Notes: generated by a model from the sequence alone, not told the origin. A stretch of 4,051 nucleotides of DNA from Escherichia coli (GCF_024223415.1 NZ_CP100507.1); one strand, 5' to 3'; counted from the first letter of the stretch, positions 1,096 through 4,051 are shown. Translations and numbers: made by a program.

Positions 1096-1134
1096 CATCG
1101 TGGATGTGTCAGCTTGTTTTTATGATATGAGAAC

Positions 1135-1163
1135 TTGAGATCCTTTCTATCTCGTCGTAATCT
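1135..1163 (+). promoter_or_regulatory. RNA II (replication primer) promoter: -35 TTGAGA (1135-1140), 17-bp spacer, -10 TAATCT (1158-1163)
   Basis: Same hexamers and spacing as the pBR322 RNA II promoter as recalled (TTGAGA ... CGTAATCT); predicted start about 1171-1172. Confidence 0.7.
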
Positions 1164-1176
1164 CTTGCTGTGTAAA

Positions 1177-1201
1177 CGAAAAAACCGCCTTGCAGGGCGG
1201 T
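1177..1201 (-). terminator. RNA I rho-independent terminator (stem 1184-1189/1196-1201, loop ttgcag, T-run on the minus strand over 1177-1183)
   Basis: accgcc / ggcggt 6-bp GC-rich stem flanked by an A-run on plus (U-run in RNA I); equivalent to the pBR322 RNA I terminator hairpin. Confidence 0.6.
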
Positions 1202-1278
1202 TTTTCGAAGGTTCTCAGAGCTACCAACTCTTTGAGCCGAGGTAACTGGCTTGGAGGAGCGCAGTCACCAAAACTTGT
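1178..1278 (-). ncRNA. RNA I antisense copy-number control RNA (about 100 nt)
   Basis: Minus-strand start near 1278 (ACAAGTTTTGG, compare pBR322 ACAGTATTTGG) and end at the hairpin plus T-run at 1177-1201; fully complementary to the 5' end of RNA II as in ColE1. Confidence 0.7.
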
Positions 1279-1284
1279 TCTTTC

Positions 1285-1314
1285 AGTTTAGCCTTAACAG
1301 GCGCATGACTTCAA
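1285..1314 (-). promoter_or_regulatory. RNA I promoter (minus strand): -35 TTGAAG (1309-1314), 18-bp spacer, -10 TAAACT (1285-1290)
   Basis: Read on the minus strand: agccTTGAAGtcatgcgcctgttaaggcTAAACTgaaagaACAAG. Position matches the pBR322 RNA I promoter (TTGAAG ... TACACT). Confidence 0.6.
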
Positions 1315-1932
1315 GGCTAACTCCTCTAATTCGGTTACCAGTGGCTGCTGCCAGTGGCGATAAGTCGTGTCTTCTCGGTTTGGATTCAAGTCGATAGTTA
1401 CCGGATAAGGCGCAGCGGTCGGACTGAACGGGGGGTTCGTGCATACAGTCCAGCTTGGAGCGAACGACCTACACCGGGCCGAGATACCAACAGCGTGAGC
1501 TATGAGAAAGCGCCACGTTTCCCGAAGGGAGAAAGGCGGACAGGTATCCGGTAAGCGGCAGGGTCGGAACAGGAGAGCGCACGAGGGAGCTTCCAGGGGG
1601 AAACGCCTGGTATCTTTATAGTCCTGTCGGGTTTCGCCACCTCTGACTTGAGCGTCGGTTTTTGTGATGCTCGTCAGGGGGGCGGAGCCTATGGAAAAAC
1701 GCCATCGGCGCGGCCTTTGTCCCTGGCTTCGGCTTTTTGCTCACATGTTCTTTCCGGCGTTATCCCCTGATTCTGTGGATAACCGTATTACCGCCTTTGA
1801 GTGAGCTGACACCGCTCGCCGCAGTCGAACGACCGAGCGTAGCGAGTCAGTGAGCGAGGAAGCGGAAGAGCGCCTTATGTGACATTTTCTCCTTACGCTC
1901 CTCTATGCCGTTCTGCATCCTGTCCGGATGCG

Positions 1933-2127
1933 TTATATCCCGGTGCGATTTTCCGCTTCAAAGCGTGTCTGTATGCTGTTCTGAAGTTCTTCCGCGAGTT
2001 CGTGCAGCTTCTCACACATGGCGGCCTGTTCGTCAGCATCAAGTGCGTCCAGTTTTTCGAGCAGCGTCAGGCTCTGGCTTTTTATGAATCCTGCCATGTT
2101 GAGTACGGTTTGCTGCTGCTTGTTCAT
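1933..2127 (-). CDS. rop: Rop/Rom (RNA one modulator) copy-number control protein, 64 aa
   Basis: Translation MNKQQQTVLNMAGFIKSQSLTLLEKLDALDADEQAAMCEKLHELAEELQNSIQTRFEAENRTGI resembles ColE1/pBR322 Rop (MTKQEKTALNMARFIRSQTLTLLEKLNELDADEQADICESLHDHADELYRSCLARFGDDGENL, from memory). ATG at 2127-2125, stop TAA at 1935-1933, GGAG about 11 nt upstream, convergent with RNA II as in ColE1. The C-terminal third is divergent. Confidence 0.9.
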   Translation of the reverse strand: MNKQQQTVLNMAGFIKSQSLTLLEKLDALDADEQAAMCEKLHELAEELQNSIQTRFEAENRTGI

Positions 2128-2168
2128 CTTTCTGTTTTCTCCGTTCTTTCTGTCATCTGCGTTGTGTG

Positions 2169-2174
2169 ATTATA
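2169..2174 (-). promoter_or_regulatory. Candidate -10 element (TATAAT on the minus strand) for rop
   Basis: Perfect TATAAT on the minus strand about 40 nt upstream of the rop ATG; no convincing -35 hexamer at 16-18 bp spacing, so weak. Confidence 0.25.
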
Positions 2175-2339
2175 TCGCGTACCACTTTTCGACTGTTTTA
2201 CCGTCGGTATTCTGCTGTCTGACTCTTTGACGGGCATTTCTGTCAGACAACACTGTCACTGCCAAAAAACTGCCGTGCCTTTGTCGGTAATTTGAGCTTG
2301 CTGACAGGACAGGATGTGCAATTGTTATACCGCGCATAC

Positions 2340-2386
2340 ATGCACGCTATTACAATTACCCTGGTCAGGGCTTTGCCCCGACACCC
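2340..2386. other. bom/oriT-like remnant (ColE1 basis-of-mobility-like sequence) immediately upstream of mobC
   Basis: ccctggtcagggctttgccccgacaccc (2359-2386) resembles the pBR322 bom flank gactgggtcatggctgcgccccgacaccc as I recall it; the recalled ColE1 nick sequence (TATACTGG/CTTA) is not found intact. Confidence 0.35.
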
Positions 2387-2410
2387 ATGTCAGATACGGA
2401 GCCATGTTTT

Positions 2411-2734
2411 ATGACAAAACGAAGTGGAAGTAATACGCGCAGGCGGGCTATCAGTCGCCCTGTTCGTCTGACGGCAGAAGAAGACCAGGAAATCAGAAAA
2501 AGGGCTGCTGAATGCGGCAAGACCGTTTCCGGTTTTTTACGGGCGGCAGCTCTCGGTAAGAAAGTTAACTCACTGACTGATGATCGGGTACTGAAAGAAG
2601 TTATGAGACTGGGGGCGTTACAGAAAAAACTCTTTATCGACGGCAAGCGTGTCGGGGACAGGGAGTATGCGGAGGTGCTGATCGCTATTACGGAGTATCA
2701 CCGTGCCCTGTTATCCAGGCTTATGGCAGATTAG
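2411..2734 (+). CDS. mobC: MobC/MbeC-family relaxosome accessory protein (ribbon-helix-helix), 107 aa; alternative start ATG 2387 (115 aa)
   Basis: Translation MTKRSGSNTRRRAISRPVRLTAEEDQEIRKRAAECGKTVSGFLRAAALGKK... has the MobC/RHH signature (basic N-terminus, beta-strand RPVRLT, helices AEEDQEIRKRAAECG and TVSGFLRAAALG). GGAG at 2398-2401 lies 9 nt before the ATG at 2411; the upstream ATG at 2387 has no SD. Stop TAG at 2732-2734. Confidence 0.8.
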   Translation: MTKRSGSNTRRRAISRPVRLTAEEDQEIRKRAAECGKTVSGFLRAAALGKKVNSLTDDRVLKEVMRLGALQKKLFIDGKRVGDREYAEVLIAITEYHRALLSRLMAD

Positions 2735-2810
2735 CTTCCAGGGGAGAAAACTGTCGAAAACAGACGGTATGAACACTGTAAGCTCCCAAAGTGATCACCA
2801 CTCGCTTTCA

Positions 2811-2824
2811 TGCATAGCTATGCA
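2811..2824. promoter_or_regulatory. ARG-box-like 14-bp perfect palindrome within the cer accessory region (candidate ArgR site)
   Basis: tgcatagctatgca is its own reverse complement; position relative to the XerCD core matches the ArgR box of cer. Identity as an ArgR site is inference. Confidence 0.35.
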
Positions 2825-2898
2825 GCGAGCTGAAAACGATCCTGACGCATTTCCCCGGTTTTCTTAGGGTAAAACATCTCTTTTTGCAGTGTCTGTGT

Positions 2899-2923
2899 CA
2901 GAATCGCGCTGAGCGCGATTCTG
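2899..2923. repeat. 11-bp perfect inverted repeat / hairpin (cagaatcgcgc tga gcgcgattctg) abutting the XerC arm
   Basis: Seen directly; no downstream U-tract, so not a classical terminator. May belong to a cer-internal transcript (Rcd-like) or an accessory-factor site. Confidence 0.5.
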
Positions 2924-2958
2924 TGGTGCGTACAATTAAGGGATTATGGTAAATACAA

Positions 2959-3225
2959 TTGGTTAAATTACTATTGGTGAGAAATGAATATTTCAATAAA
3001 AACAATGACTTAAAAACCGTTGCTCGGTTTGACGGTAAAACCTTAAGAGATGCCTTTTCGAGAAAAATAGCGACTTTTGATGGCAAGGTTTTAAGGGATG
3101 CCTCTTTAAAAAAAGTAGCAACCTTTGACGGTCAGAATTTAAGAGATGCTAGTTCAAAAATTATCCTGAGTGCCGATGCTGAGGTTGGGATTGTTGTTAT
3201 GGCCTTTGTAGCTGAGTTGATTTGA
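2959..3225 (+). CDS. Hypothetical small protein with three tandem 16-aa repeats and a hydrophobic C-terminus; non-ATG start (TTG 2959, or TTG 2974 / GTG 2977)
   Basis: Translation ...TVARFDGKTLRDAFSRK IATFDGKVLRDASLKK VATFDGQNLRDASSKI ILSADAEVGIVVMAFVAELI. Differences between repeat copies fall largely on synonymous third positions (Ala gct/gcg/gca; Asp gac/gat; Gly ggt/ggc; Arg aga/agg; Lys aaa/aag; Thr act/acc), a coding-type pattern. No in-frame ATG and no clear SD; in-frame stop at 2950-2952 limits the 5' end. Confidence 0.5.
   Translation: MVKLLLVRNEYFNKNNDLKTVARFDGKTLRDAFSRKIATFDGKVLRDASLKKVATFDGQNLRDASSKIILSADAEVGIVVMAFVAELI
3019..3162 (+). repeat. Tandem direct repeat, 3 x 48 bp (units 3019-3066, 3067-3114, 3115-3162)
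   Basis: Conserved cores tttgacggtaaaaccttaagagatgcc / tttgatggcaaggttttaagggatgcc / tttgacggtcagaatttaagagatgct at exact 48-bp spacing. Confidence 0.85.
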
Positions 3226-3282
3226 ATCTCATGCTGCATACCTTTTAGCCTATCGCTGGCAGGATAAGGCGCTTTCTTGTTG

Positions 3283-3310
3283 GTGACAGAAAGATAAAAA
3301 ACTTTATAAT
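3283..3310 (+). promoter_or_regulatory. Sigma70-like promoter facing the retron: -35 GTGACA (3283-3288), 16-bp spacer, -10 TATAAT (3305-3310)
   Basis: Perfect -10 consensus and 5/6 -35 at canonical spacing; predicted start about 3317. Lies about 190 nt upstream of a1, so it may drive the retron ncRNA-RT-csp transcript, but no nearer promoter could be identified by eye. Confidence 0.4.
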
Positions 3311-3507
3311 AATCAGCGAAGCGGGCGAACCACGCCTGGCTCTCGCTCTTTAACAAATGGTTACGTGTATGTTGCGCAAGGAAACCGATGCCTTGTTTTT
3401 AAGGCGATCTCGCATGAGATCATGACCGGCCTGGCCGCTAATTAATGGTGAGAACGCCCCTGAGCGTGTATCAGCACTAAAAGAATAGCGACGATTGTCT
3501 GGCAATG

Positions 3508-3520
3508 TGAGTTAAAAGTC
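3508..3520. repeat. Retron a1 inverted repeat (left arm)
   Basis: 13-bp perfect inverted repeat partner of 3780-3792; does not extend on either side. Confidence 0.6.
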
Positions 3521-3594
3521 CCAAAGAGCCAATAGAGTTTTTCCTTGCTTTCCTACTGGTCTGGCAAAATTTCATAACCAATAGGAGTTGCATC

Positions 3595-3777
3595 ATGTTT
3601 ATTATCAACATCAACATTAACGTAACCAAGAGCTCTTCATCTTGTTCTGGAGACGGTCAGATGAAGAAAAAAAGAGAGGTTGGCTCTCTGGAGGCACTGA
3701 AAAAAACACAGTTTTTGTTTTCTATGTGCTTGATTATGTTTAAAGTAATAGATTACGTATCGAAACTTTTTAACTAA
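3595..3777 (+). CDS. Hypothetical 60-aa ORF lying entirely inside the a1-a2 (msr-msd) region; possibly not translated
   Basis: ATG at 3595 preceded by AGGAG (3583-3587) at 7-nt spacing; stop TAA at 3775-3777. Protein MFIINININV... is low-complexity and Lys-rich. Position inside the putative retron ncRNA argues that it may be fortuitous. Confidence 0.2.
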   Translation: MFIINININVTKSSSSCSGDGQMKKKREVGSLEALKKTQFLFSMCLIMFKVIDYVSKLFN

Positions 3778-3779
3778 TC

Positions 3780-3792
3780 GACTTTTAACTCA
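3780..3792. repeat. Retron a2 inverted repeat (right arm), 6 nt upstream of the RT ATG
   Basis: Exact reverse complement of 3508-3520. Flanked by a near-direct repeat actttttaact (3765-3775) / acttttaact (3781-3790). Confidence 0.6.
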
Positions 3793-3798
3793 AACATC

Positions 3799-4051
3799 AT
3801 GAATAAACCCAGGTTTAATGGAACTCCTGTTGCATCTTTGGATTCTTTATCTGCGATGTTAGGCATAGAAAGAAAAAGATTGGACTGGATAGTCAAGTCT
3901 GTATCGATGTCGTACAAGCAGTTTAAGGTTGAAACAGGGAAGAATAAAAAAGAAAGGCAAATTTTTGAACCCAAGAGATCTTTGAAAGGAATTCAAAAAA
4001 AAATAAATAAAGAGATTTTTGAGAAAATTGATTACCCTCATTATTTGCATG
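3799..4051 (+). CDS. Retron-type reverse transcriptase, N-terminal 84 codons (continues past the window end; see 1..887)
   Basis: ATG at 3799, open to the last base of the window. Translation MNKPRFNGTPVASLDSLSAMLGIERKRLDWIVKSVSMSYKQFKVETGKNKKERQIFEPKRSLKGIQKKINKEIFEKIDYPHYLH is colinear with the N-terminal region of retron RTs (RQIFEPKRSLKGIQ resembles the Ec86-type IYQPSRELKALQG segment as I recall it). No Shine-Dalgarno is evident, so the start is the first in-frame ATG after a2. Confidence 0.85.
   Translation, partial: MNKPRFNGTPVASLDSLSAMLGIERKRLDWIVKSVSMSYKQFKVETGKNKKERQIFEPKRSLKGIQKKINKEIFEKIDYPHYLH

Follow-up and report, generated by a model that had tools for sequence, protein, structure and literature searches.

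An IncI1 (R64)-type oriT and a nikA-like gene beside rop in a small ColE1-type plasmid of Escherichia coli

The stretch of Escherichia coli DNA analysed here, referred to as the window, is a complete circular plasmid of 4051 bp. It carries a bom-like motif on the 5' side of rop, and on the basis of sequence comparison this motif is the nikA-proximal hairpin of an origin of transfer of the IncI1 (R64) type, not a relocated ColE1 bom. We read the plasmid as a ColE1-type member of the NTP16 group in which bom and the mbe genes are absent, an IncI1 (R64)-type oriT and nikA are present, and transfer depends on a helper; we put the probability of this joint reading at roughly 0.9. A preliminary description of the same DNA had seen a ColE1 backbone rearranged relative to pBR322, with its bom-like motif brought to the 5' side of rop. 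This interpretation did not hold, as a ColE1-type bom is absent from the window and the motif forms part of an IncI1/R64-type oriT.

Sequences of exactly 4051 bp that agree with the window at 100% occur in several E. coli records, such as NZ_CP066843.1 (“pCol”) and NZ_AP027712.1, and Shigella and Salmonella have near-identical copies. The RefSeq annotation of an identical record lists five genes, namely a reverse transcriptase spanning the window ends (3799-4051 joined to 1-887), a cold-shock-domain (CSD) effector annotated as “retron Se72 family effector” (892-1095), Rop, a NikA-like protein, and one small ORF encoding a hypothetical protein (2959-3225, plus strand). Neither this annotation nor the ORF list contains a relaxase gene, NikB or other, in the window. 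The replicon is of the ColE1-type, RNA-primed kind with RNA I/RNA II and rop, as evidenced by Rfam, Pfam and an identity of 84-86% to the ColE1 and pBR322-type ori; its replication region (RNA II, ori and downstream flank) occupies 1134-1898 on the plus strand, and Rfam places RNAI at 1176-1276 on the minus strand with 94.6 bits. The backbone forms a cassette of about 1134-2955, running from RNA II/RNA I/ori through rop, the IncI1 (R64)-type oriT and the nikA-like gene to cer.

Pairwise BLAST aligned window 1134-1898 with positions 604-1395 of ColE1 (NC_001371) at 83.8% identity and with positions 529-1329 of the pBR322-type record NZ_CP011006.1 at 85.8%. In all three sequences, the homology of the ori flank ends right after TTTTCTCCTTACGC (window 1885-1898), in agreement with the earlier placement of this end at about 1900. 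Past this point, the alignment with the pBR322-type record continues only within rop, and the matches to ColE1 are limited to a part of the rop coding sequence (1984-2111 against ColE1 1660-1787, 72.7%), the 24-nt motif, and the cer core. The distance from the breakpoint to the rop stop codon is 34 bp in the window versus 216 bp in both ColE1 (1396-1611) and NZ_CP011006.1 (1330-1545), and it is this 216-bp segment that contains bom; from the ori flank to the 3' end of rop, the window has nothing but the 34 bp. Within the segment, ColE1 shows its nick region TTAAGCCAGTATACAC at 1461-1476 and the motif at 1498-1521, followed by the rop stop at 1612, while in NZ_CP011006.1 the ori flank runs to 1329, nic occupies 1395-1410 and the motif 1431-1455, and the minus-strand rop follows at 1546-1737.

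For the pBR322 comparison, the BLAST query was an ori-flank-to-rop sequence taken to be that of pBR322, which had 100% matches in records from unrelated hosts. NZ_CP011006.1 displays the gene layout of pBR322 (TEM bla, ori, rop, tet(C)). It is filed as pAG001, a native 3716-bp plasmid of the actinobacterium Psychromicrobium lacuslunae with a pMB1 ori, and is most likely a cloning-vector contaminant, matching pBR322 at 100% over the stretch tested. Since ColE1 and the pBR322-type record both have the order ori flank, nic, motif, rop, the reference arrangement given in the preliminary description (ori, bom, 3' end of rop) was right, and the pairwise alignment proposed there as a check revealed an order in the window that differs from it. 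The order oriV, oriT, rom (complement), mobC, likewise of the ColE type, is listed in the published feature table of pSNC3-Kan (PMC9282650).

The rop (rom) gene, encoding 64 aa, lies at 1933-2127 on the minus strand (Pfam Rop, E = 1.5e-32; WP_001041640.1) and points to ori as in ColE1, so the earlier statement that rop follows the ori flank immediately, with its 3' end at 1933, was accurate. Rop is 64% identical to ColE1 Rop over residues 1-56, after which the tails diverge; the C-terminal tail is lineage-specific and, as had been noticed before, differs from the reference. Compared with the Escherichia albertii plasmid pEA5_4, the 3' end of rop carries 38-48 additional nucleotides (window 1919-1957), the length being variable within the NTP16 group, and this insertion leads to a new stop codon and a different Rop tail (..FEAENRTGI versus ..FEAQYGIGTES in pEA5_4). 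The 34-bp spacer between ori flank and rop stop (1899-1932), which stands where ColE1 and the pBR322-type record have their 216-bp bom segment, is variable across NTP16-group plasmids save for an invariant GCATCCTG. At the other end of rop, a lineage-specific spacer (2128-2306) extends to the oriT; it has no ColE1 match, is conserved in the NTP16 group, and presumably contains the rop promoter and 5' UTR. ColE1 has no counterpart of this spacer, as its divergent rop (1612-1803, minus) and mbeC (1867-2190, plus) are separated by just 63 bp. A consensus promoter scan of 1850-2450 returned no sigma-70 promoter for rop or nikA, and a terminator scan of the same interval returned a single terminator-like site, located inside rop. 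A 55-aa ORF at 2170-2337 on the minus strand was rejected as a gene because relatives show a 1-nt indel and have lost 12 nt within it.

The bom-like motif GGTCAGGGCTTTGCCCCGACACCC (24 nt, 2363-2386) agrees with ColE1 1498-1521 at 22 of 24 positions (BLAST E = 5e-4). It is found past the 5' end of rop, 236 bp from the start codon, with the ATG of the next gene (2411) 25 bp further on. Its position beyond the 5' end of rop had been given correctly, but the neighbouring gene, labelled mobC at that time, is NikA-like. The motif includes an 8-bp inverted repeat (2364-2371/2375-2382), which folds into a hairpin on the nicked strand. A sensitive search revealed that 83 bp of the window (2304-2386) are 86-88% identical to the stretch upstream of IncI1 nikA-nikB, defining an oriT of about 2300-2392; matches in the oriT search include 1576 records typed as conjugative, and most of the large plasmids among the matches listed align at that stretch. 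The elements found upstream of nikA follow the order of R64, that is, nick core, adjacent repeat, partner repeat, and 8-bp distal inverted repeat. The nick core CATCCTG|TCC, located by the IncI1 oriT alignment, is on the minus (transferred) strand at 2307-2316, and a long inverted repeat spans 2320-2357 with arms of 18 nt (2320-2337 and 2340-2357) that are 83% complementary. MOBP nick sites have the form YATCCTG|Y, and from R64 and RP4 we infer a nick at about 2309/2310 in the window core. By analogy, the nick-proximal arm corresponds to “repeat A”, the NikA-binding site of R64, and binding is predicted here as well. For R64, Furuya and Komano reportedly described in 2000 the 17-bp repeats A and B and an 8-bp repeat involved in termination. 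Folding of the minus (nicked) strand gave two hairpins (z = -5.65), and in six aligned NTP16-group members the oriT is near-invariant over about 2296-2410.

A three-way alignment revealed that the window and IncI1 share the nick core GGACAGGATG, the long inverted repeat, and the motif, whereas ColE1 has essentially only GGTCAGGGCTnnGCCCCGACACCC in common with them. The motif is common to the IncI1 oriT, the NTP16-type oriT and the bom of ColE1 and pBR322, and its side of the nick and its polarity relative to ori are the same in ColE1, the pBR322-type record, and the window. As the ColE1 bom carries the same element at the same place relative to its own nick, the motif resembled a displaced bom. 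These alignments suggest that the shared 24 nt represent an exchangeable “distal hairpin” module common to MOB-HEN and IncI1 MOBP origins, possibly a termination signal; we found no prior description of a distal hairpin shared across these three kinds of oriT.

The gene following the oriT (2411-2734, plus strand; WP_000166966.1) encodes a NikA-like relaxosome accessory protein of 107 aa with a ribbon-helix-helix (RHH) fold, named “MobA” by NCBI. This protein shows 53% identity to IncI1 NikA (E = 4e-38) and matches the Pfam family NikA-like (PF21983, E = 2.8e-18, above the cut-off) and the NCBIfam model “MobA” (NF041264, 113 bits versus a cut-off of 80). It does not match Pfam MobC, whereas ColE1 MbeC does, and BLASTP displayed no similarity between the two proteins. 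Besides its MobC domain, MbeC also shows a weak match to the NikA-like RHH domain; with both proteins matching this domain, the accessory proteins are distant relatives. The ColE1 combination of a cognate MbeC/MobC accessory protein and an MbeA relaxase was not found in the window. Having neither nikB nor transfer genes on a multicopy ColE1 replicon of 4 kb, the plasmid is not self-mobilisable and depends on a helper. The labels “MobA” and “relaxase MOBF” can, therefore, wrongly suggest the presence of a relaxase; the latter is assigned by MOB-suite (PLSDB typing) to six such relaxase-less plasmid records, including Shigella sonnei 53G plasmid B.

This lineage has been named the NTP16 group (NTP16, pCERC7, pU302S) by Moran and Hall in 2017, as cited in PMC9282650 and PMC6807383. 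According to the parts of their work relayed by these two papers, members of the group are ColE1-like, possess an identical NikA with 53% identity to that of R64 as well as an R64-like oriT that is extremely conserved and whose inverted repeats are longer, have no NikB in the account given there, and carry diverse segments beside a multimer resolution site. The window displays the same set of features, namely a ColE1-type replicon with rop, an R64-like oriT, the NikA-like protein WP_000166966.1, no relaxase, and a cer site abutting variable cargo. WP_000166966.1 is encoded by the identical record, pU302S, and most of the members fetched, while NTP16 and one S. sonnei record have other accessions. 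The identity of the window to pU302S is 93.9% over 1171-2954 and 98% over 1870-2420. Only the cargo differs, a type V (Se72-family) retron and a small repeat ORF being found in the window, whereas other members of the group carry aph(3')-Ia, colicin, LsoAB and so on. A search with the segment 1870-2420 matched 393 plasmid records, of which 313 had a coverage of at least 80%; for comparison, the ColE1-type bom occurs in 2157. The arrangement rop-oriT-nikA is already known and common, and the significance of our findings lies mostly in annotation, leaving current understanding unchanged. The proposal in the preliminary description of a distinct lineage or recombination history was borne out by this NTP16-group backbone and its module swap relative to ColE1.

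Mobilisation by IncI1 helpers has been demonstrated in the literature for close relatives and would apply to this plasmid by extension. pU302S was mobilised by IncI1 helpers and not by IncX (PMC8623487); IncP did not mobilise it and F did so only at about 1e-6, while NTP16 was mobilised by R64 (PMC9282650). On the ColE1-type plasmid pEC156, an R64-type oriT was functional with R64drd11, and mobilisation was gone once both oriT loci, F-type and R64-type, had been removed together (PMC4743918). With R64 (IncI1), the window shares the nick core, the long inverted repeat, and the 8-bp distal hairpin in this order just upstream of nikA, but differs from it in having neither the nikB relaxase nor transfer genes and in being a multicopy ColE1 replicon of 4 kb. 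The NikA-like protein of the plasmid would bind the long inverted repeat at its nick-proximal arm, and a NikB relaxase provided in trans by a co-resident conjugative plasmid of the IncI1 complex would nick the minus strand at CATCCTG|T. This strand would then be exported 5' to 3' via the transfer apparatus of the helper, rop and ori leading and nikA entering last, and the distal 8-bp hairpin may act at termination, as it reportedly does in R64. The identity to the IncI1 system is moderate (53% for NikA, about 78-88% for the oriT), and a helper family better matched than IncI1 may exist, according to the authors of PMC9282650. Once the R64-type oriT and nikA are recognised, the plasmid and the anti-phage retron that it carries as cargo would be expected to rely on co-resident plasmids of the IncI1 complex for their spread.

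The oriT and nikA could also be a decayed remnant, that is, a non-functional relic of a nikA-nikB pair or a larger mob operon kept on a multicopy replicon, a possibility we regard as improbable. It would fit a nikA with no relaxase gene after it and the occurrence of related small plasmids with oriT copies but no accessory gene. Such plasmids are pEC156, pKPN2, pSe-Kan, and pEA5_4, which resemble the window in carrying R64-like oriT copies on small ColE1-type replicons, a kind of oriT that IncI1 helpers use in trans (PMC4743918), and differ from it in the absence of nikA; in pEA5_4, which also retains a ColE1 bom, the R64-like oriT is reversed, though it lies in a rop-proximal neighbourhood like that of the window. 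Against decay, WP_000166966.1 recurs in most members fetched and the oriT is nearly invariant although the DNA has otherwise diverged to about 90% identity, which indicates purifying selection, and the transfer of pU302S (PMC8623487) and NTP16 (PMC9282650) by IncI1 helpers likewise speaks for a working origin.

A still smaller chance is left for a true internal rearrangement, in which a single ColE1-type bom would have been transposed or inverted across rop, so that 2300-2390 would be a diverged bom served by an MbeA-type relaxase. The agreement of the motif with the ColE1 bom at 22 of 24 positions, in the same orientation relative to ori, speaks for such an event, but this likeness does not extend to the nick core and the long inverted repeat, which match the IncI1 oriT and not ColE1. 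Moreover, the ColE1 nick sequence (GTGTATACTGG|CTTAAC on the nicked strand) was not found anywhere in the window at up to three mismatches, and the accessory protein is of the NikA type with no BLASTP match to MbeC. Plasmids that have a ColE-type oriT and a mob operon are mobilised by IncP, but pU302S was not (PMC9282650). In E. albertii pEA5_4, the stretch of ori, bom and rop aligns collinearly with that of ColE1 (85.4% over about 1190 bp), and on the far side of rop there is an R64-like oriT, oriented the opposite way, plus a third, oriT-like copy of the motif. As this plasmid carries a complete ColE1-type bom together with an R64-like oriT, the two are separate elements able to coexist. Overall, an internal rearrangement is already largely refuted. 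As an aside, pEA5_4 (3.9 kb) has no mob gene or nikA and appears as a multi-oriT “hitcher” (reverse-complement 830-895, 1294-1372 and 1640-1720).

On sequence grounds, the backbone of the window is instead a module swap, and its counterpart can be followed in S. sonnei 53G plasmid B. This colicin E1-type plasmid is collinear with ColE1 at 87-94% identity through colicin, lysis, ori, exc2 and exc1, but in place of ColE1 1402-3886, which covers bom, rop and the mbe operon as well as most of cer, it has a cassette of about 1 kb consisting of rop', R64-type oriT, nikA, and cer in a layout identical to that of the window. Its left seam is the ori-flank breakpoint and its right seam the cer crossover core. 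The comparison of the window with ColE1 and pMB1 replicons reveals likeness in the replicon (84-86% up to TTTTCTCCTTACGC), the orientation of rop, and the 24-nt hairpin motif, and differences in the oriT, which in ColE1 and pBR322 separates ori from the 3' end of rop and has another nick sequence, and in the mobilisation proteins, ColE1 having MbeA-D with a MobC-domain MbeC. At the right end of the conserved cassette, the window has a cer-like multimer resolution site (2745-2955), of which 2745-2930 match pEA5_4 and 2903-2960 correspond to ColE1 3887-3944. The ColE1 cer crossover core GGTGCGTACAATTAAGGGATTATGGTAAAT is present as an exact copy at 2926-2955, which we take to be the XerC/XerD site of ColE1 cer. 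Similarity to other NTP16-group plasmids stops at 2954-2970, in or next to this core. The core thus marks where similarity to these plasmids and to ColE1 stops or resumes, consistent with a Xer-mediated exchange of cargo. The ori-flank breakpoint and the cer core thus represent two seams of mobilisation-module exchange among backbones of the ColE1 family.

That the motif is no more than a coincidental GC-rich match unrelated to conjugative transfer has next to no probability, for in spite of its 24 nt and a modest pairwise E-value of 5e-4, 200 shuffles of the window gave 0 occurrences at up to three mismatches, its 8-bp hairpin forms on the transferred strand, and its exact pattern, with the same position and polarity relative to the nick, is conserved across three oriT classes (IncI1 oriT, ColE1 bom, NTP16 group), which refutes chance.

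One element is not accounted for by the main oriT model. Inside the 34-bp spacer, an exact second copy of the nick core, CATCCTGTCC, lies inverted at 1916-1925 (plus strand), giving two matches in the window versus 0.18 expected, a number reached in 3 of 200 shuffles. GCATCCTG (1915-1922) is invariant in 12 NTP16-group plasmids representing nine distinct spacer sequences, whose flanks show substitutions and indels; we found no prior description of an invariant inverted nick core in the ori-rop spacer. The copy is located on the non-transferred strand and has no NikA-binding repeat beside it. It may be one arm of a rop terminator stem, although the opposite arm is not the same in all subgroups; alternatively, it may be a relic. 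We consider it quite unlikely that this second site has a function of its own, such as that of a secondary relaxase target, or that it is a scar left when a relaxase removed bom and thereby founded the lineage. A deletion of bom or an indel at the 3' end of rop caused by relaxase strand transfer at a nick-like site was considered and found unsupported: the indel boundary relative to pEA5_4 (...CTGC|ATCCTG...) is 6 nt away from the would-be nick, the site is on the non-transferred strand, and its flanks have no similarity to the real oriT.

The cargo beyond cer is a type V (Se72-family) retron, whose reverse transcriptase matches PADLOC RT_V (E = 2.6e-127) and whose cold-shock-domain effector (892-1095) matches CSD_V and the NCBIfam model retron_eff_Se72. 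A permissive Rfam search of 2740-3850 for the retron ncRNA returned noise only. A candidate ncRNA lies at 3508-3792, bounded by a perfect 13-nt inverted repeat (3508-3520/3780-3792) that ends 6 nt before the start of the reverse transcriptase; this repeat could represent the a1/a2 boundaries of msr-msd. The ORF right after the cer core (2959-3225, plus strand, 88 aa) had no match in NCBIfam or PADLOC and a sub-threshold match to the Pfam family “5-fold beta-flower” (21.5 bits versus a cut-off of 38), and its product consists in part of three tandem units of about 15 aa (FDGKxLRDAxxxKxAT).
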